DNA from: a virus
Reading direction: 5' to 3' (one strand)
DNA: 64,000 nucleotides
Virus record (IMG/VR): IMGVR_UViG_3300017766_003354
Location: 82,906 to 146,905 of that record
Shown here: piece by piece, positions 3,069-57,013 of the stretch
How positions within the stretch are numbered: the stretch's first letter is position 1
How the letters are laid out: each line of letters opens with the position of its first letter
Position numbers and translations under genes: made by a program
Notes under the pieces: generated by a model
What the model saw: the letters and a program-made list of their open reading frames with translations, nothing else
The model's database searches: none
What the model was told of the DNA's origin: nothing

Positions 3069-3097
3069 ACTCTATTTCAATGGGTTGAAAATGTCAA
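3069..3097 (-). promoter_or_regulatory. Sigma70-type promoter, leaderless
   Basis: TTGACA-17 nt-TAGAGT, 7 nt before ATG 3061. Confidence 0.7.
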
Positions 3098-13854: not shown

Positions 13855-14229
13855 ATGCCTCCGCTCTATACATATCTCAATGAAGAAACAGGGGAAGCAA
13901 AAGATGTTCTCCAGTCAATGAGTGAAAAACACGAATTTTTCGAAGATGGGGTTCAGTGGAAAAGAATCTTTTATGCGCCACAAATGTCAATCGACACAAA
14001 AGTTGACCCATATTCAGCAAAAGACTTCTCTAAAGCCACAAACAAAAAAGGAACAATTGGAGACATGATGGATCTATCCGCCGAACTCTCTGACAAAAGA
14101 GCGAATAAAGACGGAACCGATCCCGTAAAACAGAAACATTTCCAAGACTACGAGAAGAAAAATAAGAAAAAACATTTGTTAGATAAGCCGAAGGTTATTG
14201 AGAGTTCTTTTGCTAAGATTGAATTTTAA
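13855..14229 (+). CDS. Hypothetical protein, degenerate FmdB-like N-terminus
   Basis: MPPLYTYLNEETGE...QSMSE...WKRIF resembles FmdB family but lacks the Cys ligands. Confidence 0.55.
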   Translation: MPPLYTYLNEETGEAKDVLQSMSEKHEFFEDGVQWKRIFYAPQMSIDTKVDPYSAKDFSKATNKKGTIGDMMDLSAELSDKRANKDGTDPVKQKHFQDYEKKNKKKHLLDKPKVIESSFAKIEF

Positions 14230-16478
14230 CATGGTCCGAGAGTTGTCGCAACAACAGTATCTCCAACAAGTCCATAATATTGAGTATAACGGTTGAGGGT
14301 AGAAGGCAAAACACTGGCGCAATTTTCTACTGAAACAAATTCTGCGCTCGCGTCAAAAATCCCATAACTACCAGCTTCTCTCACTCCAGACAAAATATTA
14401 CCGACATAACCCGAACAGCTTATTTCTTGATTGAATATTTTGTTAGGCTTTGAGGTATCTGATTCATAGCGAGGCGTTCTGATTTTAAATTGATATTCAT
14501 CATCCCCGCCTAAGAAGGTTTGATCTACAAACGAAACAATATAGTCTTCATTCTCCAAAACTTGAAATTGGTTAATCGGTGATATTCCATTGAAAGAAAT
14601 CAAGTCTCCAGTTTGAAATTTATGAGGAGAAAATACAAACTCGCTACCACTTTCAAATCGGCAAAAATAACCAGTTTTTTCTTTCGTTAAGACTCTTGCT
14701 ACTCCATTGATAATATCAATTGGAGAAAAAGACCAAGCACAAGAAATTGGATCACAAGATTTTGTCTCTTTGACAGCTATTTGAGTTGGTGTTCTATCAT
14801 ATATGTAAGTGTAGTGAGGAGCCGTGCCATTCAATGGCCCCAGTCTGCCATAATCAAATTCACAAATATGATGAATTTGGTTGCCAATCATTAGTCCGCT
14901 AGTTGGATCAGTGATTCCCAAATATTTTCCGCTCACGATTCCTGTTATTGGATATGTTGCGTAGTAATGTTTTTTTCTTTTTTTGGCTGTGATTGAGTTC
15001 ACTGTTATTGAAACAGGCGCAAATTCACAAGTCCTGTCCCATTCGTCCCCATCGACATTGGCATCTTCTTGGATGATTCTGCCAAAGCCACCATAATTAA
15101 AGAAATGGGCGCGATATAGACTTTGAGTTTCTTGGCAATAAAGATTGCCGAGAATTGGTCCGACAGTTCTAAAAGAAGATGTCGTCCAAGTAGGAGAGTC
15201 ATTTGAATAATTGCCAAGAGGAGGTGCATAAGACGGCCCAACAACTGGACCAGCAGGGCCGCCGTGGTCAATTGTTGCCGATCTATCCCCCCCTAATTCT
15301 GGCGCGGGTTCAATGATATAGCCTTGTTGTGGGGCTTCGAAGAAGCCTGTTGCAGACGCCCAATTAGAACTTTTGGCACGATTATACCACGGGTGGAGAT
15401 GAAAAGCGGTAGGTGTTGTATATCTTCCCTTCCAGAAATATTGACTAAACTCATCTTTCCATTGGGAGTTTATTTCAGAACCTGTAGGAGTGATCTTGTC
15501 GTAAAGAGAGAAAGGCAAATAGTCTTCTCCTCTTGAATTAAAATCCATGTTTAAAACAGAAACTTGCACAAGCCCCGCTCCTTCTCGACAATTAACATTT
15601 CGAAGAGTCACGTTATATTTTGTCGAAGAACAGTCTCCGCTCTCATCGCCATAATAGCCACTACAATAACCAGTGACTTCATTAATTATTTTTGGGCTGT
15701 AAAGTTCTAAATCGCTATCCCTAGTTGACATTTCCCAAGTAGAAATATCTTGTTTATTGACGCACGCGCCCAAAGTAAAATCCCAAGAAATAAGAGGATG
15801 CTCATTTATGATCTCAAACTCAATATCAATTTCGTCACAATCGTTTCCAACGAGAAAACCAAATTGGTAAAATTGGCCAGCTTTTTGTTCTTCTGTCAGA
15901 TCATTATAATCATCAGATCTTGAGTTATACCTAAAGCAACCCTCTTTCAAGTGTGGAGAAAAGCGAAGGCTAGAGTGTAGAGTATCCCCCCAGCCAAAAG
16001 AATATGGGGTGCTAGTAGAACATCCCACAGCATTGCCTGTCGGATCATAAGCAGGAATAATAAGAGACAAAGATGATAAATCACAAATGCCATCATTATA
16101 GACGGCCAAAAATTCAGGATCTAAATCAACGGCATCTAAAACAACATCATTAATAACAAACCACCTTGAACTATCATAGGCAGGAAAGTTGGGAGAATAT
16201 TGGCCAACAAAAAATTGATATTGCATTCCAGTAGCATAGTTACCAACGTAAGCGTTGCTTTGACACTGATCTATAACGTCAAACCAAGAAGAAGAACCAT
16301 AATCTTGCGTTTCTTCGTCACAACTGGCTCGTTTTAAATATGGCAACAAACTATTTACGGGTATTGCTTCGAACCTATTGGAAGAAGAATCTCCAGAAAA
16401 TCTTATACCTCCGAAATGGACTGGAGGCAAAGTATAATCTGGAACGTCATTCAGATGTCTGACGGTATAATCTATCAT
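14226..16478 (-). CDS. Large Cys/Tyr/Ser-rich putative virion (tail fibre/appendage) protein
   Basis: 750 aa, coupled by ATGA to fibre-like gene; acidic beta-rich composition. Confidence 0.55.
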   Translation of the reverse strand: MIDYTVRHLNDVPDYTLPPVHFGGIRFSGDSSSNRFEAIPVNSLLPYLKRASCDEETQDYGSSSWFDVIDQCQSNAYVGNYATGMQYQFFVGQYSPNFPAYDSSRWFVINDVVLDAVDLDPEFLAVYNDGICDLSSLSLIIPAYDPTGNAVGCSTSTPYSFGWGDTLHSSLRFSPHLKEGCFRYNSRSDDYNDLTEEQKAGQFYQFGFLVGNDCDEIDIEFEIINEHPLISWDFTLGACVNKQDISTWEMSTRDSDLELYSPKIINEVTGYCSGYYGDESGDCSSTKYNVTLRNVNCREGAGLVQVSVLNMDFNSRGEDYLPFSLYDKITPTGSEINSQWKDEFSQYFWKGRYTTPTAFHLHPWYNRAKSSNWASATGFFEAPQQGYIIEPAPELGGDRSATIDHGGPAGPVVGPSYAPPLGNYSNDSPTWTTSSFRTVGPILGNLYCQETQSLYRAHFFNYGGFGRIIQEDANVDGDEWDRTCEFAPVSITVNSITAKKRKKHYYATYPITGIVSGKYLGITDPTSGLMIGNQIHHICEFDYGRLGPLNGTAPHYTYIYDRTPTQIAVKETKSCDPISCAWSFSPIDIINGVARVLTKEKTGYFCRFESGSEFVFSPHKFQTGDLISFNGISPINQFQVLENEDYIVSFVDQTFLGGDDEYQFKIRTPRYESDTSKPNKIFNQEISCSGYVGNILSGVREAGSYGIFDASAEFVSVENCASVLPSTLNRYTQYYGLVGDTVVATTLGPC

Positions 16479-18190
16479 GTAGAGCGCACCAAAAATGTTC
16501 TAGTTCTCAAAAAGCCATCGACATCAGTAAAATTCATCGTCATTTCTTCCCATCCGCTTGGAGGGAAAATATAATCGCCAGAATTAATTGGAAGAGTAAT
16601 TGGTTCTGGAATATTGATTGTCTTAGTGCCAGTAGAAGTAATTTGTCCGTCTGTCCAAGAAATGGATGAATCTCCAGTTGTAGTAACGAAGTTAAGTGTT
16701 CCGTTTTTGCCATTTGGCTCCAAAAATTGCCAATCGGCGTCTTGATCAAGCGTCATCAAGCCGTTCGACCAAGAGGCAAACACTTCTGAATTGATATTAA
16801 TATACCCTTCAACACCATTACCCGTGAAGCCACCTCCTCCACCTCCTCCAGTTCCAGTAGAAAAGATATCAATTCTGCCGTTATTTTGAATTTTGCCGTC
16901 AATCCAAGAAATATTAGTATTCGTCCCATCTAACCAAAGTTGGCCAGTTTTTTCTACCCAATCAGACGCCTTGAACTTGCTCCAAGTATTGTCTTGTTTG
17001 ATGTAAAGATAATTGCCTGTTTTTGTAATGAGTCCATTTGGCCCAAATAAATCGCCGCTACTCGAAGGCTGATAGGCGTTTAGTCCCTCTGCAATCAAAG
17101 TCCCTGCAATTTTAGTATTGCCAAAACTATCCACAACTATTTGCTTGGAACTCGCATCTGCAAATTCATTTTCAGTTCCAACAATGAAACAAGTATCCAA
17201 ATCAGAGTCCCCATTGACAAGATTTGAAAACTGAGTTGATTCAGCGAAGGCATCGAAGAGAATGGCTATAGAATTTTTGGAGACGACCTTGAAAAGATTG
17301 CCTTCTGGAACTGCGTTGTTTTCAGATAGCTGAACGTAATTTGCCGAGACGCCAGTTGTCGAAATAATTGAAGCTGAATTCAAGAAGAGATCATCGGCAA
17401 AAGTCTTGTCTCCAGAAATAACTTGCGCTCCTGTTTTTTGGACAGAATTCGAAACTTGTGGCGTCAAGTTTCCACTTAAAGTATTGATTTTTGAATTCAA
17501 TGTTGAACCTGTCGCGGCAATACTGGCAGCCAAAATCCCACTAGCCCCAGTCAAATCAGAAGAAGAAGTAAGAATTGATCCTTTGTAATAAATATCGCCG
17601 CCCACACTAATACTGCCCGAAAAAATACCAGAACTACTAGGACTCAAATAAAGACTATTCAAGGCCCCGAGATAAAGATTGTCTTGCATATAGACCTTGG
17701 ACGCAACATAAGATCCTCCAGTAAATGAGATATACAGGGCGTTATTTTTATTGGCGTTTACGACTACGCTCGATTGGTCTTGTAGAATAGTCGTGCCAGT
17801 AGTAGCAATAAAACTACAAAAACTTCCTCCAAGGATTGTATTTTTGTGAGAATTCTCATCAATTGAACAATTGAAGCCATTTACAATCACGTTATCATTT
17901 CCGAGAATTGTCGAATCATCCCCGTTTACAAGAACATTCCCTGTTCCACCAATATTATTCCCCGTGCCACCAATAACATCGTTATATTCAGAACTGTAAA
18001 AATTCGAAGAATCTGGGACAGAAACATCTGATCCATTAATACTGAGATTCCCGACAATATTAAAATCGCCAGAAATTGTGGGCGAAAGATTGCCATACAC
18101 GTAATTCGCCCCCTGCGAAAAATTCACATGTCCGCTCGGACTTGAAAAAGTGTGCAGATTTATCTGTTGTGGTTGAATTTTGGAATACAT
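16475..18190 (-). CDS. Putative tail fibre / beta-helical virion protein
   Basis: G/N-rich beta-helix-like repeats (IGGTGNNIGGTGNVLV), coiled segment, KTGAQVISGDKTF motif, YLYIKQDNTWSK, poly-Gly hinge. Confidence 0.65.
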   Translation of the reverse strand: MYSKIQPQQINLHTFSSPSGHVNFSQGANYVYGNLSPTISGDFNIVGNLSINGSDVSVPDSSNFYSSEYNDVIGGTGNNIGGTGNVLVNGDDSTILGNDNVIVNGFNCSIDENSHKNTILGGSFCSFIATTGTTILQDQSSVVVNANKNNALYISFTGGSYVASKVYMQDNLYLGALNSLYLSPSSSGIFSGSISVGGDIYYKGSILTSSSDLTGASGILAASIAATGSTLNSKINTLSGNLTPQVSNSVQKTGAQVISGDKTFADDLFLNSASIISTTGVSANYVQLSENNAVPEGNLFKVVSKNSIAILFDAFAESTQFSNLVNGDSDLDTCFIVGTENEFADASSKQIVVDSFGNTKIAGTLIAEGLNAYQPSSSGDLFGPNGLITKTGNYLYIKQDNTWSKFKASDWVEKTGQLWLDGTNTNISWIDGKIQNNGRIDIFSTGTGGGGGGGFTGNGVEGYININSEVFASWSNGLMTLDQDADWQFLEPNGKNGTLNFVTTTGDSSISWTDGQITSTGTKTINIPEPITLPINSGDYIFPPSGWEEMTMNFTDVDGFLRTRTFLVRST

Positions 18191-18224
18191 GCGTTACAAT
18201 ACCTCAGAAACAATTACACGAAAA

Positions 18225-18833: not shown

Positions 18834-18836
18834 AAT

Positions 18837-19310
18837 ATGGAAGAGAAGGTGTGTTTTAAATGTGGCCAAATTCTGCCTCTGAGTGATTTTTATCGTCATT
18901 CTCAGATGGCAGATGGCCATGTCAACAAATGCAAGGAATGTAATAAAAAAGACGTTCAAGAGGATTACAAGAGAAAAATTGTCGATCCAGAATGGAGGCT
19001 TAAAGAAAGAGAACGAAGCAGGGAGAAAATGCGAACTGCTAGAGGCAATGGGAAATATCTTTCTATTCCTCCAGACAAGAAGAGAGGATCCCTTAAAAGA
19101 TATACGGATAAGTATCCAGAAAAAAAGATTGCAAGAAACAAATCTCAACGCCTAAATCCCGAGCCTTGTGTAGTTTGTGGTTCAACCGAAAACCTTGAAG
19201 GCCATCACGAAGACTATTCGAAACCAGAAGATATAACTTGGCTTTGTCGCAAGCATCATTACGAAAGGCATGTCGAAATTAGAAAACAACAATTACTAGA
19301 TGGCAGATAG
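18837..19310 (+). CDS. HNH-type endonuclease with N-terminal zinc finger
   Basis: CFKC..FY..GHVNKCKEC; PCVVCG..EGHHEDYSKPEDITWLCRKHH. Confidence 0.8.
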   Translation: MEEKVCFKCGQILPLSDFYRHSQMADGHVNKCKECNKKDVQEDYKRKIVDPEWRLKERERSREKMRTARGNGKYLSIPPDKKRGSLKRYTDKYPEKKIARNKSQRLNPEPCVVCGSTENLEGHHEDYSKPEDITWLCRKHHYERHVEIRKQQLLDGR

Positions 19311-21033
19311 AATCAAAGTATTGCTCCATAGCAACTATTCTAGGATGATTACTGGGTTTGGAAAGAATATGCGTAATATTCTCCTAGCCCTATATCAAGA
19401 TCCAGAATTCGAAATAATTGAAGCTGCGAATGGCGTCTCCTATGGTCGGGACGCCAAAACGCCTTGGAAATCATTCGGCACTGGTCCGTCTAGCCAAGAG
19501 CTAATTAATTCTCTCGGCCAAGACCAAGCTAAACAGCGGGCCGCCGCTTATGGGTTCTATGAGATTGATAAAATCGTAGCAGAAGTAAAGCCTGATGTTT
19601 ATTTAGGCATCGAAGATATTTGGGCGTTCAATGGATTTGTTGACACAAAACCTTGGTGGAATGAGACTAAAAAGATAATCTGGACGACCCTAGATAGCCT
19701 CCCTATTCTCCCAGAGGCTTACACAATGGCCAATTCTTGTGATAAGTTTTTAGTTTGGGCGGGTTTCTCTGAAGAGGAGATGAAAAAAACGGGATGCAAA
19801 AATGTCGAAACTCTTCATGGCGCGGTGGATTATTCTAATTTCAAACCTCTCGCCAATCGAGAAGAATTGAGAAAAAGACATGGTTTACAGGATAGTTTTG
19901 TAATTGGATTTGTCTTTAAAAACCAGCTTCGGAAATCTGTTCCAAATCTTTTGGATGGGTTCAGGCTTTTCAAGGCAAAAGTCCCTAATGCAAAACTAAT
20001 TCTTCATACAGATTGGGCCGACAAAGAACACGGCTGGGACATAATGAGATACCTCAAGGAAAAGGGTTTGAGCGCCGATGACGTTTTGTGCTCTTATTCC
20101 TGCGAAGCTTGCGGAGAGTATTCTTTGGGAGCTTATTCTGGACCAGAGTTAGATTGTCCTCATTGCGGGGCGGCAAAAAAATTCAAAACAAAAAGTTCTG
20201 GACACGGCTTGTCAGAACTCCAATTAAATGAGATTTACAACCTGATGGATGTTTACTGTCACCCGTTTACCAGCGGTGGGCAAGAACTCCCAATCCAAGA
20301 AGCAAAAGCCGCAGGACTCATTACACTGGTCACAGAATACTCTTGTGGGACTGATTCGTGCTATCCAGAACAAGGCGGGCTTCCTCTTGCGTGGAACGAA
20401 TATAGAGAACCTCATTCTCAATTTATTAAAGCTTCTACTTGTCCAGAGAGCATTTGTTCTCGACTTGATCAAGTTTATAGCATGTCTCCAGAGGAGAAAG
20501 TTTCTCTGATCCAAAATGGAAAAGAATGGGTTAAAAAGGAATTCTCTGTCCAATCTGTCGTCTCCCGCCTAAAACAAATAATCAAAGAAGTCCACGCCGC
20601 CCCACTTGTTAAAGCAGAGCAAAAAAATCTCCCACAAGAAAACAAAAGAACCGAATTCGATACCCTCTTAGATAAAGAGAGAAAAGATAGAATCCTATTC
20701 GTCCTACCGCAAAGCGAAGAAGACGTATTCGTGGCAACCTCTCTTTTGCCGAATATCAAAGAAACCTACCCCGACAAAGACATCTATTTTGCCACGAAGC
20801 CAGAAAACAAAGAGTTTCTTTTAGGTAATCCTTTTGTTTATAAAATTCTGGACTTTCACCCTCAGATGGAAAACCTTTTAATGATGGAAGGACAAGGAGA
20901 AAATCATGAAGGGTATTTTGAAATTTGTTTTCTGCCTCACGTTGGAACTCAAAAAGTCCTCGATTACATTCATCACGGCAAAGATAAGATTGCCTTAAAT
21001 ATTTATTCTCCCAATTACAATGTCACCCATTGA
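19300..21033 (+). CDS. GT4-like glycosyltransferase with Zn-ribbon insert, fused to GT9 N-terminal domain
   Basis: TGFG, KNQLRKS, CEAC..CPHC, LNEIYNLMD, GGQELPIQEAKAAG; C-terminal RILFVLPQSEEDVFVATSLLPNIKETYP. Confidence 0.8.
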   Translation: MADRIKVLLHSNYSRMITGFGKNMRNILLALYQDPEFEIIEAANGVSYGRDAKTPWKSFGTGPSSQELINSLGQDQAKQRAAAYGFYEIDKIVAEVKPDVYLGIEDIWAFNGFVDTKPWWNETKKIIWTTLDSLPILPEAYTMANSCDKFLVWAGFSEEEMKKTGCKNVETLHGAVDYSNFKPLANREELRKRHGLQDSFVIGFVFKNQLRKSVPNLLDGFRLFKAKVPNAKLILHTDWADKEHGWDIMRYLKEKGLSADDVLCSYSCEACGEYSLGAYSGPELDCPHCGAAKKFKTKSSGHGLSELQLNEIYNLMDVYCHPFTSGGQELPIQEAKAAGLITLVTEYSCGTDSCYPEQGGLPLAWNEYREPHSQFIKASTCPESICSRLDQVYSMSPEEKVSLIQNGKEWVKKEFSVQSVVSRLKQIIKEVHAAPLVKAEQKNLPQENKRTEFDTLLDKERKDRILFVLPQSEEDVFVATSLLPNIKETYPDKDIYFATKPENKEFLLGNPFVYKILDFHPQMENLLMMEGQGENHEGYFEICFLPHVGTQKVLDYIHHGKDKIALNIYSPNYNVTH

Positions 21034-22141
21034 ACGTTACGCGCTTTCTACTGGAGTCAAAATAGAAAATCCCCAAATTCTTGAGCACTTTTATCCTGTT
21101 TCGGCGGATAAATATGTTTGCTTTGGGCCGTCTAAAAAGGATAACTTAAGAGACTATGATTTTTGGAATCTAGTAATTGAGCTTATTTCTCCCGTCTTAA
21201 AAGGAATGGGTTATACAACAGTTCAAATTGGCACCCAAAAAGATGACCCCATTGGGTGCGATATTGATTTGCGCGGAAAACTTAATATCAGACAGGCTGC
21301 GGGCGTCTTAAAGAATTGCGAGTTTTTTGTTGGAGTTGATACTTTTTTAACTCATATCGCCGCATTTCAAGGCAAGCCTATCGTGGCGATTTATGCTGCT
21401 TCTTTTTTGGAGTGCTGCAAGCCTCATTGGGGCGACTTTTCAAAGCACCACCTTATTCAAACGCCGAGAGGAGAAAAAGAAAATCCGTCTTTTATCCTGA
21501 ACGAAAATCCAAAATCAATCAACCGAATTAAGCCAGAAGAAATAGTCTCTAAGATAGTCAAAATTCTTGGAGTGAATTTCGATCCAAGATTTAGAACTCT
21601 TTATGTCGGGCCGCGCTTTAAAGATGAGTGTGTTGACGTTATTCCTTTTAGCTTCTCCAAGGTGGTGAGCGACAAGATTAACATTCGAATGGACATCTTT
21701 CATGGAGAAAAAGAGCTTCAGCAAATTCTCCAAAACAATCGCGCCGAAGTTACAATTAGAACTTCTTTCGAATTAAATTTCCAGAATGTGCGTAATATTA
21801 AGTCGGTTAATTATGTTTCGGATTCTTTTGATACTCAGTTTATTGAACGTCTCAAAAAGCTAGGAATTAAAATAACCCTACTCTGCACATCAGAGGATGC
21901 CCTCTCCCGCGAAAGGTTTAAGCTTTTCGATTATACCATCAATCTTTTTCAGCCCGATAAACTCATAGAAGAAAACAAAAAGAAACTTACAAAAGACCCC
22001 TTTCTTGTTTCCACCATTAGCTCTAAAAAAGTAATCTGCGGAGACAAAGCTTTTAATTCTCTTTTCGAATATTCGAAGAAAGTTGATGACTTTTTTGTTG
22101 ACTTGGATTGGCTTTATGTTTACGATAGAGGGCATGAATGA
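21020..22141 (+). CDS. GT9 (heptosyltransferase-like) C-terminal domain protein
   Basis: VQIG, DLRGKLNIRQAAGVLKNCEFFVGVDTFLTHIAA..GKPIVAIY. Confidence 0.75.
   Translation: MSPIERYALSTGVKIENPQILEHFYPVSADKYVCFGPSKKDNLRDYDFWNLVIELISPVLKGMGYTTVQIGTQKDDPIGCDIDLRGKLNIRQAAGVLKNCEFFVGVDTFLTHIAAFQGKPIVAIYAASFLECCKPHWGDFSKHHLIQTPRGEKENPSFILNENPKSINRIKPEEIVSKIVKILGVNFDPRFRTLYVGPRFKDECVDVIPFSFSKVVSDKINIRMDIFHGEKELQQILQNNRAEVTIRTSFELNFQNVRNIKSVNYVSDSFDTQFIERLKKLGIKITLLCTSEDALSRERFKLFDYTINLFQPDKLIEENKKKLTKDPFLVSTISSKKVICGDKAFNSLFEYSKKVDDFFVDLDWLYVYDRGHE
22098..22126 (+). promoter_or_regulatory. Sigma70-type promoter, leaderless
   Basis: TTGACT-17 nt-TACGAT, 7 nt before ATG 22134. Confidence 0.65.
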
Positions 22142-22901
22142 AGAAGCTCTAGCTAATATTGCTAAATATCAAAGAGGAGAACACGGCCTTCTAGAAAACG
22201 TCAATTATGTCTTCAATGAAGACGGATCGGTTAATTGGCGGGCGATGATTAAGCCTGAGTTCCTATACGTGAATAAAGGATGGTTTGAACAAAGAAACAA
22301 AGAAGTCCCAACTTCAATCGAAGGCTTACAAGATAAGCAATTGTTAATTATGTTGGGCGGAATTAAAGAGTTGGCGAAATTGAGGGGCTATCGTGGGGTT
22401 CAATATGGGTTGACTCGCGATGAAGGCAACGATTATATTTCTTCCTCTTGTCGAATTGACTGGATGCCAAATTATGAAACTAATGGAGAAGAAGTCTCGT
22501 ATGAAGATTGCGCCAACGCTTCATTTGACAACACAGATTCTTTTTGTCACAAGTTCTTGGAAACGATGGCTTGTAATCGGGCGTTTGTCCGCTGTGTCCG
22601 TAATTTTCTAAATATTCACATCGTTGGAGCAGATGAAATTGATAAATCTGATCCAAATTTCTCCAGAGATTCTCCAGAATCTTCAAGTGCTAGCGAGCTA
22701 TCTATTCTTCAGCCTCACAGCCTTCTCGAAAGAACGGCCAACGAAAAAGGAATTGAATCTTTTGATGGTTTCGTGGAATGGCTGAGAGAATGCCATAAGA
22801 ACAAAACCTACGTAAATCCAGATCAAGTAAAACTTTGGAAAGGCTATAAGGACATCCCCGCAAAGGAATGCCGCGCCCTTTCGAAGCTTCTGAAGAGTTA
22901 G
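22134..22901 (+). CDS. Rad52/Sak-like single-strand annealing protein
   Basis: Start at ATG 22134; GGIKELAK, SYEDCANAS, ETMACNRAFVRCVRNFLNI..VGADEI. Confidence 0.55.
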   Translation: MNEEALANIAKYQRGEHGLLENVNYVFNEDGSVNWRAMIKPEFLYVNKGWFEQRNKEVPTSIEGLQDKQLLIMLGGIKELAKLRGYRGVQYGLTRDEGNDYISSSCRIDWMPNYETNGEEVSYEDCANASFDNTDSFCHKFLETMACNRAFVRCVRNFLNIHIVGADEIDKSDPNFSRDSPESSSASELSILQPHSLLERTANEKGIESFDGFVEWLRECHKNKTYVNPDQVKLWKGYKDIPAKECRALSKLLKS

Positions 22902-30537: not shown

Positions 30538-33500
30538 TATTTTCCTACTTGTTCGAGAGCTTGAACTCTACCAATAAGAGCCTTGATAGACCCGTCAACA
30601 GTCGTTGCTAGAGTTCCCATGTTGCTTGCCAATTCTTGGAAAGCCTTTCCATCGGTTGCGGCGTTTTTAAGCGAATTATCAAGATCTTGAATCGTTGATT
30701 TAAGATTCGGCAAATCTTTGAATTGTTCTGAAAAGGTGGTCATCGCCGTATTGACGCCTTGGAAGCGTTCGCGCAAAGATTCGAGTTCCTTGCGAACTTT
30801 AACAGATTCTTCGGTAATTTGCTTGTTGGCATTTTCTTGAGCCTCTTTAGAGCCAGTAGGATCGACCTTTTTCAAAGCTTCAAGATCTTTGATTTTTGCT
30901 GCGATTTCTTTGTCGAATTTTCCGCCGCGAGAACCTTTCAGACTTTGAAGGTCTTTAATAACCGTCGAAGCGTCTTGTTCAGAGGACAAGCCCTTATCGC
31001 GGATTCTCGCCATATCTTGCGGCAAGAATTTCTTGCCAACGATTCTTTCTCTAAGGTCGAAAGCGCCAGTATTAGCTTGCGACAACGCTTGAGAAACTCC
31101 AACTTTATTGGAAAATCCAGTGCTGATACCAGCATTAGACTTCCATGCATTAACAACTTTATCTCCGTAAACGCTAATAGCGTTAGCTTCGAGTTCTGCG
31201 ATTTTTAGCCATTGGTCGGCGGCTTTTTGGGCAGAGTCCCCGCCGCCAGTTTTTTCTAATTTGCCAATACTCTGATAAGCAGCGGTTAATGAAGTAATAT
31301 CAATAGCGCCGACATCTTTAATAGCTTTTAGTTTTCCTCCTAAGCCTGAAACTAATCCCTCTAAAGTTTTAACTAATTCATCTTGGATGCCTTTTTTGAA
31401 TTTAGAGAAATCTTGTTTAAGAGTGTCTCGTTCTGCGATAATAGAGGATTTCGCGTTCAACAAAGATTGGAACGAGCTAGACGCTGAAGAAGCAAATTCG
31501 TCTGCGCTTTTTACGACATTATCGAAAAACTCTTTACCACTTCCTTTAACATCTACTCCAACAGCAGAAAGTTTGTCTTCTAGTCCTTTGGCCCCCTTGG
31601 AGAAATAAGTATCCACCAAAGATTGAGAAAACCCCTTTTGCTCGACATCGAAAGAAGCTTTTGTTGCTTCTCGGCCTGTTATATCGGATCTTAAAGATTT
31701 AGCAAAGTCTTCGCCTGTGAAAAGTTGCGATAAAGCATTTTCAGATGAAAGGGCTTGAGTTTGGGAAGATTTGAGCGACAATAGTTCTTTTACGCCCGAA
31801 GCGTTTTTGGCGGCGGGGTCAATAAAGACGTTTTCGGCCAGTTTGTCAGTAAAACTTGCAGAGGTCAGTTTATTAGCTGTTTCCGCAACGGCTTGTGAAA
31901 ATTGGTTTAAAGACTTTAAGAAATCTGACAATAGATTTTCCCTAGTTGCCGCTTTCCTGAAACTATCAATATTTGCCTTAGCTTCCAATACCGCCGCTTG
32001 CAGAGCGTCGTTGGCTGCGGCTACTTTCGTATAGTCGATCTCTCCTTGTTCGTTTGGCTGGTAGGCTTCTTTTAAGACTTTAGATAAATCTTCTATTTGT
32101 TTTTTTGCTTCTTCGCCTTGCTTAGTTGAGCTTAAATCTTTGACGAATGATTCGTAGCTCTTTTCTTTTTCTTTTTTATTCTTCCCCTCAAATAATCCAG
32201 CAGTTGATCTAAAGCGCGTAGTCATTTGCGCTCTTTGTTGTGTGAGGCCAATAATGCTGTTACCTTGATTTTCGGCAAGTTTTTCAGAATATTTTGTGGA
32301 GCCTAATTTCGAGTAAATTCCCGTTGATTGTTCTAGTTTATTTGCTCCAAATCCTCCTAATTTAAAGCCTCCATAAGCCGCGCCTGCCGCCGCAGCAGCG
32401 GGACCAGCTACAGATAAACCGCGAGCGACTAATCCGCGAGCGCCAACGCTTCGTGCCGCAGAAAGTCCCCCCGCCCGAATGTTGCGAAAGAAGCCTCCCT
32501 TGCCTTGGGTTCTCAATAAGTCCTTTTTAGCAGTGTTACTTAAAATTCCTGAATCAATATTTTTAGCTTGAGAGGCTATTCCTTTATATTTAGAAGCTCC
32601 AGAACCAAGAAAACCTCCTTTTTTAGCTATTGATTTAAATACAGTTGGGAAACCCTTTGACAAAATGGTTTTGCCCATTTTAGCGAAATCGCCAAAACTT
32701 TTACCAGTTACAGAAGAGATTGTCGCCATGATAAGCAACGCTTGAGTAGCCGTTGTGACGGCGCTATCTAAATTAATAAAACTTTTGTCCAATCCTTCTG
32801 TAGATTGTCCCAAAGATTCCGCCTTTGATACTGCGTCTCTTTGTTCTTGGCTTAAAGAGGTCGTTGCTTGTTGAAGAGCACCAAACAAAGATTGCAAAAC
32901 AAAAATTTCCCCAAATCCTGTTGGTTTGCTAATTCTTGATTTCGCAGGAGGCGCATATCTCGACCCATCATCAAATCCAGCGGTGTTGCCAGACGGCGTT
33001 GCGGCTGGTCCGCGACGAGCAGACGGACGACGAGGATTGCTAGAAGGAGATTTGGTAGGCCCTGATCTTCCTCCTCCGCCTCCGTTTGTCCCCCCAGAAG
33101 AAGCAGCCGCTTGAGCAGAAGCGAATCCCGCTGTCGCTTTGGTTGCCTCCCCTAGTCCCATTTTAAACTGTTGCAGTTGAGCCACAACAATGCCGAAGGC
33201 TTGGTTCGAAGGTTGTGGTTTTGCGGTATTGGGCGATGATGAAGAAGTAGCCGTTCCTCCAGAAGCTTTCGCTTGTGCGGAAGCTTTTTTCTTTTCGGCA
33301 GCGTCCAATAGACGCTTGGCAACTTTCGCTTCGGCAATTAGTCGAGGATCAGAACCAGAATATGCAGCACGAATTCTTAAAGAATTTATTGCATTATCTG
33401 ATACAAAATTTGGCACAAAGCCTCCCGCAGCACCATAACTTTTTGGACTTTTCCCTTCGCGTTTGGCGCGGTTTATTCCTTGACGTGAACCATTAGGTTC

Positions 33501-36500
33501 GTCTCTAGTATTGAAGACGCCGAAACCGTTAGGGTTCCGAGATGAGCGGAGGGCTGGATTCTGGTCAACGTAGATTTGAGAATCAGAAAGGCCGAAAGAC
33601 TTTTCGCGAGCGATAGCGTCTTGAACTGCGGAAAAATTTGGAACAAATCCACCGCCAGCAGTTTTAGGTTTTGGCGGTTGTGCTAGTTTTCTATTAGGAG
33701 AGGATAGTCTTTGAGAGAGAATCTGAGATAAGGCCCTTTGAGAATATTCTGGGTCGTTGAATGTTTTTGTTACTAATCCATTGACCTGACCAACGATTTG
33801 CTTTTCTCCCAATCTTTTAGCTTCTCCTCTTTGGACATTGACTCCAAAAATATCATTCATCGCCTTTGAATTGGCGAAATCGAAAGGTCGATTAGTATCT
33901 TTTGGCTCAAAGATAGATTCCATTTCCTTCATTGAAGAGAGCGCAATTTTGCTCGCAGATTCAAAGATAGCTCCTTCCGCAGATGCAGAAAGAATCCCCC
34001 CTTTACTAGTCGATTTAAACTTTCCAAGCTTTCCTGCAAATTCAGAATAATTTCCAATATTGAAAAGCTTGCCATACATCGAATTGGCCAAATTTACTAA
34101 TGCTGGCGCGAAAATTTCATTAATATTCCCAGAAACGCCCTTGACATCTTGACCCTTTGGAATGCCGCTGGTATCAATGTTTCGGAGATTGATCAGCTCT
34201 TTTCCTGCCCCAGCTTCTTTAGTCTTATCGAATAATTTGTTGCCACCAGAGTCTTGAGAACCATATAATCCCTTGACAGCATACGCTGGCATTCTGGCCG
34301 TGGTCTTTCCTTTCCCGCCGAATCTCGGGCTAACCAAAAGAATGCCGCCAAGCTTTTGTGCATCTACGTTATACTCATCAATAAAACTTTCTTTGCGAAC
34401 TTTCGCATCTTGAATAGAACGAGCTAAAGAAGGCTGAACATTTCGGCCTAAGATTCTTTTCGCATTGGAAGCCGCAATGATTTTGCCACCAATGTTATAA
34501 GTCTCTGATCCAGCCACTTTATACCTTTCAATATCAGCGAGACTCTTAGCTCCTGTGCTACGGATTGCAAAAGTGTCGCCTTCGGCGCGATCTTGAATTT
34601 TTGTGAAATCTTTAGCAGCAGACGAAAGAGGAGAAGAAGATTTGATGTTATTATCGACTTCTCTAATGAATGGAACTTGTTTATATCCAGCTTCAGTTCT
34701 CTTCTTCAGAATGAAGTTGGCCGCTGCAATATCGGTTTCGGATTTTGCGAATTGAAGAGGGTTGGGGCGTTTAACCAAATTTCTAACAGCAGACCAAAAG
34801 CTGAACCCGCTGTCGGCAAAATTCGGAGTAAATCCGCCAGCAGAAAAACCTTGAGCATATTCTGTTCCTTTGCCGAACCCATTTGGTGGTCTAATAATCG
34901 TAGCCTTCTTTCCAGCAGCATTCGTGAAGTTTGTAATAGTTTCGCGGCTATTAACAAAAGAATTAAACGACTTCCCATTACCATCATGAATACGAGCCTG
35001 CTTGACGGAACCAGCAGTATAGCCGTGTTCTTTGGCTTTCTGTCTTTCCATTTGCTTCCCAAAGGAAGGCATAAAACCAGAAGCAAAATTTGGGACAAAC
35101 CCTTGCGCGTAAGGCTTTCCGCCCTTTCCAACATATCCTTGTTCATTGAATCCACGAACACCTTTAGCATAAGCCGCAGTAGCCATGCCTCTGAGAATTT
35201 GTTGTTGCTCTTTTAGGTGTTGGTTTTCAAGAGCAATAGCCTTGACAATCAAATCATGACGTTGCGCCGTAGTAAGGGTCTGATCTCGCAGTGATTTTTG
35301 AAGATCGACATTGTGTTTGAGCGTTTGGGAAATTCCGACCTCAATAGCTTTAATTCTTTCCGCCTGTGTTCCAATCGCAAGAACTGTCTTAAAACCCTCC
35401 TTCGCAAAGCCTGCAACCAGCTTGAAAATTTTGGCGAAAGCAACCGAAAAGAGAATAATAGCGGGTCCGCTCAAAAATGACCCAATAGTTTTAAAAAGTC
35501 CTTGAACTAAAACGTTCCCCTTTTCTGGATCTAAAGCCTTAGTTAAAAAGTCCGTCGCAGCGTTGCTAACAGAAAGCAATCCTTTTAGGACGGGCGCAAA
35601 AGTCAATTGACCGACTTTTTCGGCCAAATTTGTCATGCCCACAACAAGAGAATTAATTTGTGCGGCGATAGACTTGTTCATCTCTTCGCTTTTCGCATAG
35701 GCTTCATTAGTTGCTTGGGCGGCAGTTAAAGAAGCAGAAGCAGCAATTGAATTATTGCTTCCCAAATCTTTCAACGCAGCAGAAACCAAGTTGATCTGAT
35801 AGACACCACCAGCGAGTTCTTTAATAGCTGCGGCTTGAGTTGGGTCGGTAATTCCACTCAAAGCTTGAGACAAAGCATTAAGTTTTTGAGTTCCAGATTG
35901 AGAAGCGTCGATAGCGACACCTAATGCTTGCAAGTCCTCAATTGTAGATCCTCGGCTTAGACGAGTGAAAATAGACTTCAAGGCATTACCAATAACGGCA
36001 CCACCACGAGAAGTAGTTTGTTGAACGGCAGTTACCAAACCCAACAATTCATCAAAGCTTACTCCAGCATCTTCCGCAGACGAACCAGTTCGTTGGAAAG
36101 CGTCGGCCAAATCTTTTGCAGAAACGGCGAATTTAGTATCAACGGCAACAAGTTTATTAGTGATTTGTTCTGCGGTGAGTCCTGCGCTTTGGAAACCGTT
36201 GATCGCGGCAGTTAGAGCATTAACAGACTTAACAGAATCCAAACCAGAAACCCGAGTCAAAATAAGGGCCGCCTCAAGACGTTTCGCTGTTTCTACAGCC
36301 CCTAAACCTTGACGGGCGAGTTCTCCAGCAGCATCTGCTACGATAGTAAAAGATTGGCCAGTGGATTGAGCAACGCTAAATACTGTATCTCTAAACGCCG
36401 CAAAATCAGAAGCACTAGCTCCTAAAATAGAATTCAACTCAATCAACTTCTTCTCAACGGAAATCGTTGTAGAGACAATTTGTTTGAAAGCTTGCGTCAC

Positions 36501-36692
36501 ACCCGCAAGCACTGTTGTAGTAGCTCCGAACGCAAAAACACGAGCAGTAGAAGCGTCCAGAGACTTCTGGAATTCAGAAGCCTGACCTGTGATTCTTCCA
36601 AGCGCACGTTGGATCTGCTTCGCTGAATTATTCAGACTGGCAGGATCAAGCGTAGCTTGAAGAGAAACTGGGAACGCTGCTTGTTTAGGCAT
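30537..36692 (-). CDS. Tail tape measure protein (2051 aa)
   Basis: TP901-type TMP core (ELARQGLG, KLVAVD..FAVSAKDLA, GAVIGNALKSIFTRL), hydrophobic segments, coiled C-terminus. Confidence 0.9.
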   Translation of the reverse strand: MPKQAAFPVSLQATLDPASLNNSAKQIQRALGRITGQASEFQKSLDASTARVFAFGATTTVLAGVTQAFKQIVSTTISVEKKLIELNSILGASASDFAAFRDTVFSVAQSTGQSFTIVADAAGELARQGLGAVETAKRLEAALILTRVSGLDSVKSVNALTAAINGFQSAGLTAEQITNKLVAVDTKFAVSAKDLADAFQRTGSSAEDAGVSFDELLGLVTAVQQTTSRGGAVIGNALKSIFTRLSRGSTIEDLQALGVAIDASQSGTQKLNALSQALSGITDPTQAAAIKELAGGVYQINLVSAALKDLGSNNSIAASASLTAAQATNEAYAKSEEMNKSIAAQINSLVVGMTNLAEKVGQLTFAPVLKGLLSVSNAATDFLTKALDPEKGNVLVQGLFKTIGSFLSGPAIILFSVAFAKIFKLVAGFAKEGFKTVLAIGTQAERIKAIEVGISQTLKHNVDLQKSLRDQTLTTAQRHDLIVKAIALENQHLKEQQQILRGMATAAYAKGVRGFNEQGYVGKGGKPYAQGFVPNFASGFMPSFGKQMERQKAKEHGYTAGSVKQARIHDGNGKSFNSFVNSRETITNFTNAAGKKATIIRPPNGFGKGTEYAQGFSAGGFTPNFADSGFSFWSAVRNLVKRPNPLQFAKSETDIAAANFILKKRTEAGYKQVPFIREVDNNIKSSSPLSSAAKDFTKIQDRAEGDTFAIRSTGAKSLADIERYKVAGSETYNIGGKIIAASNAKRILGRNVQPSLARSIQDAKVRKESFIDEYNVDAQKLGGILLVSPRFGGKGKTTARMPAYAVKGLYGSQDSGGNKLFDKTKEAGAGKELINLRNIDTSGIPKGQDVKGVSGNINEIFAPALVNLANSMYGKLFNIGNYSEFAGKLGKFKSTSKGGILSASAEGAIFESASKIALSSMKEMESIFEPKDTNRPFDFANSKAMNDIFGVNVQRGEAKRLGEKQIVGQVNGLVTKTFNDPEYSQRALSQILSQRLSSPNRKLAQPPKPKTAGGGFVPNFSAVQDAIAREKSFGLSDSQIYVDQNPALRSSRNPNGFGVFNTRDEPNGSRQGINRAKREGKSPKSYGAAGGFVPNFVSDNAINSLRIRAAYSGSDPRLIAEAKVAKRLLDAAEKKKASAQAKASGGTATSSSSPNTAKPQPSNQAFGIVVAQLQQFKMGLGEATKATAGFASAQAAASSGGTNGGGGGRSGPTKSPSSNPRRPSARRGPAATPSGNTAGFDDGSRYAPPAKSRISKPTGFGEIFVLQSLFGALQQATTSLSQEQRDAVSKAESLGQSTEGLDKSFINLDSAVTTATQALLIMATISSVTGKSFGDFAKMGKTILSKGFPTVFKSIAKKGGFLGSGASKYKGIASQAKNIDSGILSNTAKKDLLRTQGKGGFFRNIRAGGLSAARSVGARGLVARGLSVAGPAAAAAGAAYGGFKLGGFGANKLEQSTGIYSKLGSTKYSEKLAENQGNSIIGLTQQRAQMTTRFRSTAGLFEGKNKKEKEKSYESFVKDLSSTKQGEEAKKQIEDLSKVLKEAYQPNEQGEIDYTKVAAANDALQAAVLEAKANIDSFRKAATRENLLSDFLKSLNQFSQAVAETANKLTSASFTDKLAENVFIDPAAKNASGVKELLSLKSSQTQALSSENALSQLFTGEDFAKSLRSDITGREATKASFDVEQKGFSQSLVDTYFSKGAKGLEDKLSAVGVDVKGSGKEFFDNVVKSADEFASSASSSFQSLLNAKSSIIAERDTLKQDFSKFKKGIQDELVKTLEGLVSGLGGKLKAIKDVGAIDITSLTAAYQSIGKLEKTGGGDSAQKAADQWLKIAELEANAISVYGDKVVNAWKSNAGISTGFSNKVGVSQALSQANTGAFDLRERIVGKKFLPQDMARIRDKGLSSEQDASTVIKDLQSLKGSRGGKFDKEIAAKIKDLEALKKVDPTGSKEAQENANKQITEESVKVRKELESLRERFQGVNTAMTTFSEQFKDLPNLKSTIQDLDNSLKNAATDGKAFQELASNMGTLATTVDGSIKALIGRVQALEQVGK

Positions 36693-36712
36693 TTCCCTTA
36701 ATTACACGAAAA

Positions 36713-38459: not shown

Positions 38460-38499
38460 ATATCCGAGTAATTATCTGTTGAAATTTTTTAAATTCAAG

Positions 38500-38967
38500 T
38501 TATTCGTTAGGAATCAAGTAAAATCCATCAAAAGAGACAAGATATTCGAGATTTGAATCTTGAAGTCCGCTGGCAGTGTTAATAGTTGGAGGCTCTACAT
38601 ACTGAGATTTAATCCTCATTCCCATAGTAGAACTTCCGTATTTCTCAAATTCTATGCAATTAATTGGGCATATTATTTCAATATGGTTGGACATCAAAAC
38701 TCCATCATAAAAATAACTAGCTCTCTCAAAATCAAAAGAATGAACTTGAACATTAAAAAGCTCGCCGCTTCTATAACCTCCAAAAAAGTTTCCACTTTGG
38801 TCGAAAAGGTAGCCCCCAGATCCTCTAAAAGATAGGCCAGTAGTAAAATCCCCTGCACCAGTTCCGCTACCGAAGGCGAACGAAAAACCAGAAGCAGGTT
38901 CATTCACCCGAAATTCCAGATCGGCCACGAAGTTAGAATTAACGTGTGTTCCTGTATAGAATTTCAT
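38500..38967 (-). CDS. Virion structural protein, [S/T]G-rich
   Basis: Coupled to tube paralog; beta-rich. Confidence 0.55.
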   Translation of the reverse strand: MKFYTGTHVNSNFVADLEFRVNEPASGFSFAFGSGTGAGDFTTGLSFRGSGGYLFDQSGNFFGGYRSGELFNVQVHSFDFERASYFYDGVLMSNHIEIICPINCIEFEKYGSSTMGMRIKSQYVEPPTINTASGLQDSNLEYLVSFDGFYLIPNE

Positions 38968-39797: not shown

Positions 39798-39845
39798 AAC
39801 AAGGTTTACACCTTTTACCCTCGATTGATTCGCCCCTTCCGAAGA

Positions 39846-39874
39846 AAGAGGCGGGGTGGGTTTCCTCGCCTCTT
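39846..39874 (-). terminator. Intrinsic terminator after tail tube gene
   Basis: AAGAGGCG/CGCCTCTT stem followed by TCTT on minus strand. Confidence 0.65.
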
Positions 39875-39946
39875 AGATCAGGATTGGCTCACCATTAAAG
39901 AGAATCGAATCTCCGTTGTATAGCAAGCCCTCTTCTTCTTCAGGGG

Positions 39947-41059: not shown

Positions 41060-41091
41060 AAGTTTAAGTTATTTTCTGTCTTTACACAATT

Positions 41092-41964
41092 TTAAAGTCT
41101 TGGGAAGCGGTGGGTGGACAAATCAAAGTCTAGAAACCCAATTGAAAAGTTTTTACCCAAGTTTTTGCGCATATCTGGATTTACGATTTTAGAGTCGATG
41201 ACTTTTTCGATATATGATTTATTGCTATGTTCTTGTGGCTGGGAGGCTTTTAAGACCGCGTAATTATACGGGAAGCTCTTTATAGAATTAAACTTCCCAT
41301 AAGGGAAATCCTCATAAGGGATATGAGTAACGCATTTTCTGGCCGAGTCTCTGAAATAAGAAAGAACAGCATCCAGAAGATAATTATCCTTCGTCAAGAC
41401 GGCCACTCTTATTCTTGTTTTCGTATCTTCTTCGCCGCCAAAGCAAAATTCTTTATTTTCTCCATTGGCTAAAGAAATGAAACAAGCAGGCAAAAAGTAA
41501 GTCTTTTCGTCAAGTTTGTCGTCTTTGCCATACCAATAAGGTTTGGCCTGTCCTACTTCACGAAAGTCGCCGTGGACAATTAACTGTTCATCGTCATCGT
41601 TCGAAATGTAGGTATTAATTTCTTTAACGGTGGAATTTGCTGTGATGGTCAAGCTCGCGCCAGAAGCTTTAGGCAAAATGATTCGTCCATTTGTATAGTC
41701 CACAAACACTCCAGACGCGGAACCAGTCACAAATGACCCCCCTACAAAAATACCAGAATTCGGAACATCAACGCTTTGCTCTGCAACTAATTGCCTATAC
41801 GCCCCTTGATAAGCATAATAATTAGAAGGAATATCGGGCGCGGAGACTCTTTTGAACTCGTTAGATAAGCCAGTAATATAAGCTTTTGAGCGAGAACTCA
41901 ATAACTCATTCTCAAACCAAAGATAAAAGCTCGAAAGTAAAATATGATCAAACTGCGATTTCAT
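41092..41964 (-). CDS. Putative tail terminator/completion protein
   Basis: Position before tube; LPACFI..GG..TRIRVAV pattern. Confidence 0.5.
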   Translation of the reverse strand: MKSQFDHILLSSFYLWFENELLSSRSKAYITGLSNEFKRVSAPDIPSNYYAYQGAYRQLVAEQSVDVPNSGIFVGGSFVTGSASGVFVDYTNGRIILPKASGASLTITANSTVKEINTYISNDDDEQLIVHGDFREVGQAKPYWYGKDDKLDEKTYFLPACFISLANGENKEFCFGGEEDTKTRIRVAVLTKDNYLLDAVLSYFRDSARKCVTHIPYEDFPYGKFNSIKSFPYNYAVLKASQPQEHSNKSYIEKVIDSKIVNPDMRKNLGKNFSIGFLDFDLSTHRFPRL

Positions 41965-56993: not shown

Positions 56994-57013
56994 ACAACCA
57001 CTTACACGCAAAA

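Follow-up and report, generated by a model that had tools for sequence, protein, structure and literature searches.

We analysed a 64,000-nucleotide stretch of viral DNA (the window), which is the right-hand 64 kb of a complete virus record of 146,905 bp with terminal repeats (IMG/VR record IMGVR_UViG_3300017766_003354, positions 82,906 to 146,905). The subject is the frequency of Ser-Gly and Thr-Gly dipeptides ([ST]G) in its tail-tip, baseplate and fibre proteins, which an original prediction had proposed as O-glycosylation acceptors, together with the glycosyltransferase (GT) genes encoded among the tail genes. The tail module is anchored by a tape measure gene on the minus strand (2051 aa, 30537..36692; Pfam PhageMin_Tail, E 8.9e-24). 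It is followed on the same strand by genes for a 502-aa protein in the Dit position (29029..30537), a 523-aa tail-tip protein (27461..29032), a 453-aa protein (26103..27464), a 255-aa tail-tip/baseplate protein (25339..26106) and an 814-aa distal tail protein (22898..25342). Three plus-strand genes, here called the transferase module (19300 to 22901), separate these from the minus-strand genes for a 571-aa tail fibre with a conserved N-terminal half and a unique C-terminal tip (16475..18190) and for a 750-aa protein with 19 Cys (14226..16478). The gene for a 155-aa protein (38500..38967, minus strand) has the major tail genes on one side and the genes in the tail-chaperone position on the other.

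We translated 65 non-overlapping open reading frames (ORFs) and compared [ST]G counts with the expectation from each protein's own composition, taking significance from 100,000 shuffles per protein. The strongest case is the 255-aa protein, with 17 pairs where 5.9 were expected (z 5.47, p ≤ 1e-5); 17 of its 26 Gly residues (65%) sit in such a pair. The 453-aa protein has 27 against 12.5 expected (z 4.97, p ≤ 1e-5), and in neither protein did any shuffle reach the observed count. The 155-aa protein (9 against 3.1, z 3.93, p = 0.0006) and the fibre (25 against 14.7, z 3.24, p = 0.0016) follow; the 750-aa protein is marginal (16 against 10.5, p = 0.044). The hand counts of the original prediction for the first four proteins, and for a 370-aa tube candidate, were exact, and the excess it had reported in the four survived the correction for composition. 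Its wider statement that outer virion proteins are enriched applies to these four but not to others: the tube candidate is not significant (9 against 6.9), the 814-aa protein is neutral (10 against 9.2), and the strongest depletion in the genome is that of the 502-aa and 523-aa proteins, whose genes come first after the tape measure (0 against 5.2 and 1 against 6.0). As it had also said, no excess was found in the capsid candidate (1 against 3.4), the portal-position protein (5 against 4.9), the terminase or the enzymes, and there is none in the tape measure (32 against 31.6). In the whole genome the 255-, 453-, 155- and 571-aa proteins are the top four of 171 ORFs, at a genome-wide observed/expected ratio (O/E) of 1.13.

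In both the 255-aa protein and the 571-aa fibre, no other dipeptide is as over-represented as Thr-Gly. Gly followed by Ser or Thr (G[ST]) is not in excess (6, 12, 15 and 5 in the 255-, 453-, 571- and 155-aa proteins, against 5.9, 12.5, 14.7 and 3.1 expected), so low-complexity, GS-type composition does not account for the [ST]G excess. The sites use 24 different codon pairs, which excludes a DNA-level motif. We conclude that the excess in these four proteins is real, that it lies at the amino-acid level and that it is directional and specific to Ser/Thr.

The excess is inherited across the family. A profile of the 255-aa family retrieved 12 IMG/VR loci of the same gene order, which are the 12 nearest relatives of the window. 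Each runs from the tape measure through the 502-, 523-, 453-, 255- and 814-aa genes to, on the opposite strand, the 272-aa, GT9-like and 577-aa genes of the transferase module, then to the fibre and finally to a 124-aa gene and a 362-aa GT4 gene. Orthologues of the 453-aa, 255-aa and fibre proteins in these loci retain the excess at 27-44% identity. In one complete relative (147,748 bp) the four orthologues, at 33-39% identity, are the top four of 180 ORFs (z 7.6, 5.6, 5.5 and 4.8), and 155-aa orthologues gave z 3.8, 4.8, 3.0 and 5.5. An IMG/VR search with the 577-aa transferase found 133 relatives (40-64% identical), 80 of which were taken as loci. Over these loci the median O/E was 2.23 for the 453-aa family (n = 53), 2.47 for the 255-aa family (n = 54), 2.19 for the fibre (n = 61) and 2.14 for the 523-aa family (n = 55). 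The 814-aa orthologues (n = 54) were again without excess (pooled O/E 0.89, median 0.79), the 502-aa orthologues (n = 53) were depleted (pooled 0.51, with a median of 0.47, which places them at about the 3rd percentile among random viral ORFs) and the three proteins of the transferase module gave pooled values of 0.76-1.10.

Specificity for the hydroxyl residues was examined in 223 proteins of the four enriched families (loci L031-L110). Before Gly, the pooled O/E was 2.83 for Thr and 1.77 for Ser, against 0.93 for Asn, 0.64 for Asp and 0.76 for Ala, and no residue other than Ser or Thr exceeded 1.02. Since Asn, Asp and Pro are not enriched, a generic turn propensity does not explain the excess. 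In the same proteins Pro-Gly has an O/E of 0.01, compared with 0.82 in random viral ORFs; this avoidance is unexplained and as striking as the Thr-Gly excess.

Phages outside the family provided the controls. In the structural regions of T4, lambda, the Bacillus phages Bak1 and Tsamsa and Lactococcus phage 949 (186 ORFs), no ORF exceeded z 4 and proteins of tail-tip or fibre size reached z 1.8 at most. A quasi-random background of 492 viral ORFs (758 kb) gave a pooled O/E of 1.23 (before Gly, Ser 1.24 and Thr 1.22). Where 4 or more pairs were expected (165 of these ORFs), the median was 1.15, the 95th percentile 1.81 and the 98th percentile 1.94, and the enriched families lie past the 98th percentile as whole families. 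An ORF with z above 4 was found within 10 kb in 62 of the 80 transferase loci and in 4 of 80 random loci, the random ones being shorter. A generic property of fibres is thus rejected, the excess being absent from the five reference phages and rare in the random sample. The comparison with phages that lack the GT genes, which the original prediction had suggested, was limited to unrelated phages; these lack the excess, and every relative that we found carries the transferases.

Proteins without detectable homology share the excess. The 453-aa and 255-aa families show no profile similarity (hhalign probability 0.1), so hidden homology between them was rejected. Fibre tips between which BLAST finds no similarity each carry an approximately twofold excess (pooled, 39 against 19 expected). 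Neighbours of the transferase genes that have no homology to the tail proteins of the window are enriched as well, among them a 1084-aa protein (67 against 29.3, z 8.5) and others at z 8.3, 8.1 and 7.6. A sister family, reached through the 523-aa superfamily, has the same gene order at 22-30% identity. Its 453-like proteins reach z 5.4-9.3 and its fibre-like proteins z 5-9, its 502-aa homologue is sometimes enriched, homologues of the transferase module lie at the ends of 3 of its 6 loci, and the 272-aa homologue lies at locus edges. Because it is found in non-homologous families, fibre tips, module neighbours and a sister family, the excess behaves like a trait imposed from outside any single fold.

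Several neighbouring proteins in the relatives deserve description. An [ST]G-rich protein of 608 aa adjoins the transferase module in L095 (7245-9071, minus strand; z 8.3) and begins with a stretch of about 70 residues rich in Pro and Thr, mostly (Pro-Thr)n, which looks like a classic linker of the O-glycosylation type. Two S/T/G-rich proteins are strongly depleted beside strongly enriched ones, a 703-aa protein (L277:18138-20249, minus strand; 4 against 15.9) and the product of L279:18412-19323 (plus strand; 0 against 4.2). In L004 (10001-12265, plus strand) the 255-aa family forms the N-terminal part of a fused or extended protein of 754 aa.

The 523-aa family illustrates gain and purging of the pairs on one fold. 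The window protein has a single site, its relatives have 3 to 28 at 35-45% identity and are mostly enriched, and at the aligned dipeptide positions the window protein carries polar pairs such as IE, EV and DL. Across 611 representatives of the superfamily the O/E runs from 0 to about 2.6, which argues that the fold does not need the pairs. A profile of the low-load cluster of this superfamily retrieved no IMG/VR locus. Compensation of [ST]G load between proteins was also considered and rejected (Spearman rho 0.03).

At the level of single sites, conservation and turnover are both seen. In the alignment of the 255-aa family (A3), T9G10, G16, G43, G76, T179G180 and G231 are invariant. In the 453-aa family T294G295, T297G298, T304G305 and T363G364 are invariant, and T405, S412 and S431 stay Ser/Thr (once Ala) before the invariant G406, G413 and G432. 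Half of the site columns, 38 of 73 in the 453-aa family and 16 of 40 in the 255-aa family, are seen in a single sequence. The Ser/Thr of a pair stays Ser/Thr in 60-66% of homologues, compared with 35-39% for other Ser/Thr. When conserved columns were dropped, an excess of 1.31-fold (453-aa family, in which one clade dominates) and 1.68-fold (255-aa family) remained. These columns, the residual excess and the range of 1 to 28 sites in the 523-aa family show that the fold can do without the sites.

Structure predictions place the pairs at turns. In the confident parts of the models, pairs lie in loops, in hairpin turns or on the final residues of strands. The AlphaFold2 model of the 255-aa protein is a β-sandwich (residues 30-197) with sites at strand ends and turns, 11 of the 12 sites in its confident part being found in a loop, in a hairpin turn or on one of the final two residues of a strand; Foldseek found no fold match for this model in the PDB. 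The 453-aa protein is predicted to consist of an N-terminal ConA/LamG-like lectin domain (residues 1-270), modelled as a jelly-roll β-sandwich at a pLDDT (per-residue model confidence) of 70-85, and a C-terminal extended β region, modelled as long, low-confidence hairpins that carry the invariant TG sites. By Foldseek the N-terminal domain resembles the N-domains of botulinum neurotoxin (BoNT) Hc (E 5e-6, probability 1.0), AbnA domain 4 (5hon, a carbohydrate-binding module (CBM) of an arabinanase; TMt 0.67) and a CBA120 tailspike domain. Its match to Pfam LamG (PF13385, E 0.017) falls under the Pfam cut-off, which one sister-family protein clears. The 155-aa protein appears to be a small, CBM-like β-sandwich, an Atlas structure search having matched residues 1-126 to the Sialidase-like CBM PF22585 (TM 0.67). 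The claim of the original prediction that the pairs occur in unrelated folds therefore holds for the 453-aa and 255-aa families, but the 453-aa N-terminal domain and the 155-aa protein are both lectin-like β-sandwiches. A tblastn search of the phage collection with the 453-aa protein found nothing, and neither did a locus search with the single 453-aa sequence.

The transferase module is encoded among these genes. Its first member is a 577-aa GT (19300..21033, plus strand), with a weak Pfam match to Glycos_transf_1 and a match to the glycosyltransferase family phrog_2170 (E 5e-18). Its GT4-like body contains an invariant CxxC-x14-CxxC insert (C268, C271, C286 and C289), and its last ~110 residues align weakly with the N-lobe of GT9 enzymes (profile positions 469-528 against residues 9-68 of 3tov, E 0.13). 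The second member (373 aa, 21020..22141, plus strand) overlaps the first by 14 nt and would supply the GT9 C-lobe, the nucleotide-sugar half: it matches Pfam Glyco_transf_9 (PF01075, E 6.8e-11, 42.4 bits against a cut-off of 22) only over profile positions 166-213, and its family profile matches residues 244-313 of WaaF (1psw, E 3e-4). A C-terminal domain of this protein is weakly similar to RgpF (Pfam, E 0.002) and to Gtf3 (3qkw/3rhz, E 0.14). Thus, one GT9 fold is apparently split over two overlapping ORFs. All relatives examined show the same split, which excludes a sequencing frameshift. The third member, a conserved 272-aa protein (22083..22901, plus strand; 53-59% identity in relatives), had no match in Pfam, PHROG or, with a family profile, the PDB. 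The module sits between enriched tail genes in 12 of the 12 nearest relatives, and its proteins are 55-64% identical there, compared with 23-44% for the enriched ones.

Further sugar genes lie nearby. The 362-aa GT4-like transferase (12347..13435, plus strand; Glycos_transf_1 E 2.7e-4, phrog_2170 E 1e-13) is a paralogue of the 577-aa body on the far side of the fibre genes, with 57-66% identity in relatives. A sugar operon (3094..7566, minus strand) encodes a GDP-mannose 4,6-dehydratase (Gmd; GDP_Man_Dehyd E 7e-83), an S-adenosylmethionine-dependent methyltransferase (Methyltransf_24 E 5e-14) and GT-A transferases of GT2-like (a weak Glyco_tranf_2_4 match) and CAP59-like (CAP59_mtransfer E 3.5e-6) type. 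Inside the transferase island lies a gene for a 157-aa endonuclease VII/HNH-like protein (18837-19310; phrog_2340 E 3e-24); it has no orthologue in the 12 nearest relatives and is thus probably a mobile insertion.

The source is a divergent, long-tailed, uncultured phage as judged from its sequence: none of ten tail-region proteins matched a PHROG, and the nearest cultured relatives by terminase and tape measure, large Bacillus and Lactococcus siphophages, are only 24-33% identical. The window also encodes a T4-type large terminase (49534-51444, Pfam) and, by Pfam, PhoH, a class II ribonucleotide reductase and a RecA-like protein. The 750-aa protein matched nothing in Pfam or PHROG. The 12 nearest relatives lack an orthologue, and in them the 124-aa gene directly follows the fibre gene. 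Ahead of the tape measure, two genes in the tail-chaperone position (36713-38459) share 35 nt and encode unusually large products of 300 and 292 aa. Other genes of the window encode a LAGLIDADG homing-endonuclease-like protein with a helix-turn-helix domain (56163-57011) and a protein with a C2H2 zinc finger and a weak ERCC4 nuclease match (51422-52351).

There are at least four possible explanations for these observations. The one that we favour, at a probability of about 40%, is that Thr/Ser-Gly is a candidate O-glycosylation tag at β-turns of tail-tip, baseplate and fibre proteins. The pairs at strand ends and tight turns of these β-rich proteins would be acceptors for O-glycosylation in the cytoplasm. 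The writers would be soluble glycosyltransferases of the phage itself, most likely the split GT4-GT9 module, with sugars supplied or extended by the Gmd/methyltransferase/GT-A operon, and the outcome would be a heavily glycosylated host-recognition apparatus. The data show the dipeptide excess with its specificity and inheritance, its turnover, its purging from some proteins and its co-occurrence with the transferase genes; the attachment of any sugar, the responsible enzyme and the type of sugar are inferred. A bias that is gained and purged, is independent of fold and is absent from the analogous proteins of other phages suggests a common factor that reads the motif; such a factor is what most simply explains a lineage-wide, directional and hydroxyl-specific bias, and the conserved transferase module is the obvious candidate for it. 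Tentatively, the proposal extends to a large family of long-tailed, uncultured aquatic phages that may hyperglycosylate their own host-recognition apparatus by means of a two-chain GT4-GT9 enzyme, one GT-B fold being split between two polypeptides, which would read the Thr/Ser-Gly turn as a minimal turn signal, the load being tuned in evolution for each protein separately by gain and purging of the dipeptide.

The O-glycosylation proposal of the original prediction is thus supported in part. A Ser/Thr-specific, inherited excess in distal tail proteins and a transferase module between the enriched genes of the relatives speak for it; on the other side, no transferase is tied to a protein acceptor, between a third and a half of the sites are invariant residues of turn type, and some sites lie in repeats. 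Further points weigh against glycosylation. A match to a known protein O-glycosyltransferase was found for none of the transferases; among solved structures the GT9 part comes closest to the lipopolysaccharide (LPS) enzymes WaaF and WaaC, and the GT4, GT9 and GT2 types are the usual toolkit for envelope glycans. The transferase genes lie on the strand opposite the tail genes, in islands shared with a dUTPase, a deoxynucleoside monophosphate (dNMP) kinase, a sigma-like factor and an endonuclease. Tag and transferases are both present in every relative found, and no relative lacking the module was found among the loci examined, so the association may be simple co-inheritance. TibC, the enzyme with which the module is compared below, modifies Ser only, whereas Thr is preferred here. 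Finally, no benefit is evident of a glycan coat on receptor-binding parts.

A purely structural signature comes close behind as an explanation. Here the trimeric baseplate and fibre proteins would be built of β units of 7-10 residues with unmodified Thr/Ser-Gly corners, and the transferases would serve another purpose. About 10 of the 27 sites of the 453-aa protein and 4-6 of the 17 sites of the 255-aa protein are invariant or nearly so, the core sites at both residues at ~30% identity, as is typical of structural turn residues. The confident sites of the 255-aa model fall almost without exception in loops, hairpin turns and strand ends, and in the 453-aa protein it is long extended hairpins, a form typical of intertwined trimers, that carry the invariant TG sites. 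Nor are the sites as non-periodic as the original prediction had stated, which proved only partly right: a spacing of 7 is over-represented (39 against 14 in the 453-aa family, 11 against 4 in the 255-aa family), and sites recur at spacings of 7 and 10 and within short fibre repeats. One distant fibre repeat reads 'SE-TG-QFY..SNP-SG-YI-TG-VDL'; the fibre of the distant relative L103 has five copies of the repeat TGNQTISGTKNF, which is Pfam BppL_N (PF18338, 74.5 bits, E 3e-21). For the L103 fibre there was no PDB match, and tblastn of the phage collection with the distant fibre found nothing. BppL_N is a motif of lactococcal receptor-binding proteins known from phage TP901-1, and its TGxQTISGxKxF holds two of the pairs. 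It covers just 2 of the 25 sites of the window fibre, which has one weak motif of this kind (QKTGAQVISGDKTF, residues 250-267, 14.4 bits against a cut-off of 25.8), and none in the 453-, 255- and 155-aa proteins.

The near-absence of Pro-Gly also points to a particular Gly geometry, as structure would demand. Giant fibre-like proteins of random viruses reach an O/E of 1.6-1.8. In the random sample, two unrelated contigs encode giant fibre-like proteins with a milder excess (O/E 1.6-2.2), and their short flanks hold no homologue of the window proteins, transferases included; some structural contribution is therefore general to S/T/G-rich fibres. The structural explanation meets several difficulties. 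Before Gly, Ser and Thr alone are enriched, and neither turn formers (Asn, Asp, Pro) nor strand formers (Val, Ile, Tyr, Phe) are; in T4, lambda, Bak1, 949 and Tsamsa, fibres and tail tips manage without the excess; the 523-aa fold tolerates anything from 1 site to 28. The excess recurs across families and domains without detectable homology, and S/T/G-rich neighbours such as the 502-aa family and the 703-aa protein are depleted. Structure and glycosylation are not mutually exclusive, and the acceptor serines of the glycosylated protein TibA are turn residues themselves.

A third explanation, which we consider unlikely though deserving of weight, is that the transferases act on host envelope glycans or on phage DNA and that their proximity to the enriched genes is coincidental co-inheritance; it is compatible with either account of the dipeptide. 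It draws on the similarity of the GT9 part to WaaF and WaaC, on the fact that transferases of the GT4, GT9 and GT2 families typically build LPS cores, and on the company that the module keeps on the plus strand, which consists of the dUTPase, the dNMP kinase, regulators and the endonuclease. In a distant subgroup (L101 and L109) the module is found next to replication genes, and no protein encoded within 10 kb of it is enriched. Against this explanation, an ORF with three or more membrane segments, as a flippase, a polymerase or another multi-pass protein would have, is missing from the complete genome, and so is any homologue of a ThyA-like hydroxymethylase or of ThyX. These absences weaken the case for export-coupled glycan synthesis and for the usual route of DNA glycosylation, both of which we rejected. 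Nor does the module behave like a variable moron, since it belongs to the core that more than 130 related phages conserve.

We regard as improbable a fourth explanation, in which another factor acting in trans, or direct binding, selects the pairs: an assembly chaperone, phosphorylation or acylation, or contact of hydroxyl-rich loops with host polysaccharide. A lineage-wide, fold-independent and hydroxyl-specific bias does call for a common cause, two of the enriched proteins have folds of carbohydrate-binding type, and conserved proteins of 217 and 272 aa with no assigned function lie in the same island. Pfam and PHROG scans identified no kinase, acyltransferase or known fibre chaperone, however, and the sites are spread across whole proteins rather than on one binding face. 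We know of no system that uses [ST]G as a signal for a chaperone, for another modification or for binding. Chance or compositional artefact can be dismissed, for although the proteins are rich in Ser, Thr and Gly and the general viral background stands at an O/E of about 1.2-1.3, the bias is directional and Ser/Thr-specific, its composition-corrected z reaches 5.5 here and 9.3 in relatives, and shuffles and replication in orthologues of more than 50 genomes refute it.

If Thr/Ser-Gly is indeed a glycosylation tag, a sequon for the glycosylation of phage tails would be defined for the first time, and it would give a simple sequence rule for predicting glycosylated phage proteins. Virion glycosylation would then reach beyond the heads and tubes of mycobacteriophages, to the machinery by which abundant environmental phages bind receptors, and sugar-coated fibres would affect host range, adsorption to non-host particles and protease resistance. 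The compact pair of enzyme and tag would perhaps be usable for glycoengineering. Even if the signature is structural, a family-wide, hydroxyl-specific turn signature that is purged from neighbouring proteins is an unexplained regularity of fibre architecture.

A search of the literature for an [ST]G sequon or for glycosylation of phage tail fibres returned nothing relevant. Besides the BppL_N motif, four known systems bear comparison. In eukaryotic proteoglycans, Ser-Gly is the acceptor for O-xylosylation, which needs acidic flanks, a GT14 xylosyltransferase and the secretory pathway. Unlike that system, the phage has no GT14-type enzyme and Thr dominates at its sites. The chlorovirus PBCV-1 glycosylates its major capsid protein with virus-encoded cytoplasmic enzymes that include a GDP-mannose 4,6-dehydratase. 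The phage likewise carries Gmd, a methyltransferase and several soluble transferases and no export machinery; PBCV-1, however, is a eukaryotic virus whose capsid glycans are N-linked at atypical sequons, not an O-linked tag of tail proteins. Among phages, the virion proteins of the mycobacteriophages Che8, Corndog and Myrna are glycosylated by phage enzymes, according to work of Freeman et al. 2023 as cited in PMC12619734, and the glycans are placed there at the C-termini of capsid and tail-tube subunits. The citing text describes no dipeptide sequon for that system. The present pattern differs: the capsid and tube candidates are without excess, and the candidate sites are not C-terminal but are distributed over tail-tip, baseplate and fibre proteins.

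The proposed mode of modification is most akin to the hyperglycosylation of β-helical autotransporters by TibC and AAH, the bacterial autotransporter heptosyltransferases (BAHT). TibC, which is related to GT9 enzymes, heptosylates Ser-313 of TibA in an N-S-G-G context, and structures of TibC and of the TibC-TibA complex have been solved (PMC4358343). In sequence the module does not belong to this family. PDB searches with its sequences and profiles hit only WaaF (1psw), WaaC and 3tov, and TibC was absent from the PDB-chain matches up to E 10 with single sequences and family profiles alike. BAHT enzymes have a Cys4 iron finger in the catalytic domain; a Cys4 insert occurs here as well, placed in the GT4-like body rather than in the GT9 portion, which is itself split over two ORFs. 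Their substrate is one β-helix, while the candidate substrates here are phage tail proteins of several folds. The likeness is one of arrangement and, as proposed here, of chemistry: in the BAHT systems, whose substrates are TibA and AIDA-I, the gene of a soluble GT9-related enzyme lies beside its substrate gene, as the module does among the enriched genes, and the enzyme adds many sugars in the cytoplasm to Ser in the short inter-strand loops of a repetitive, β-rich surface protein.

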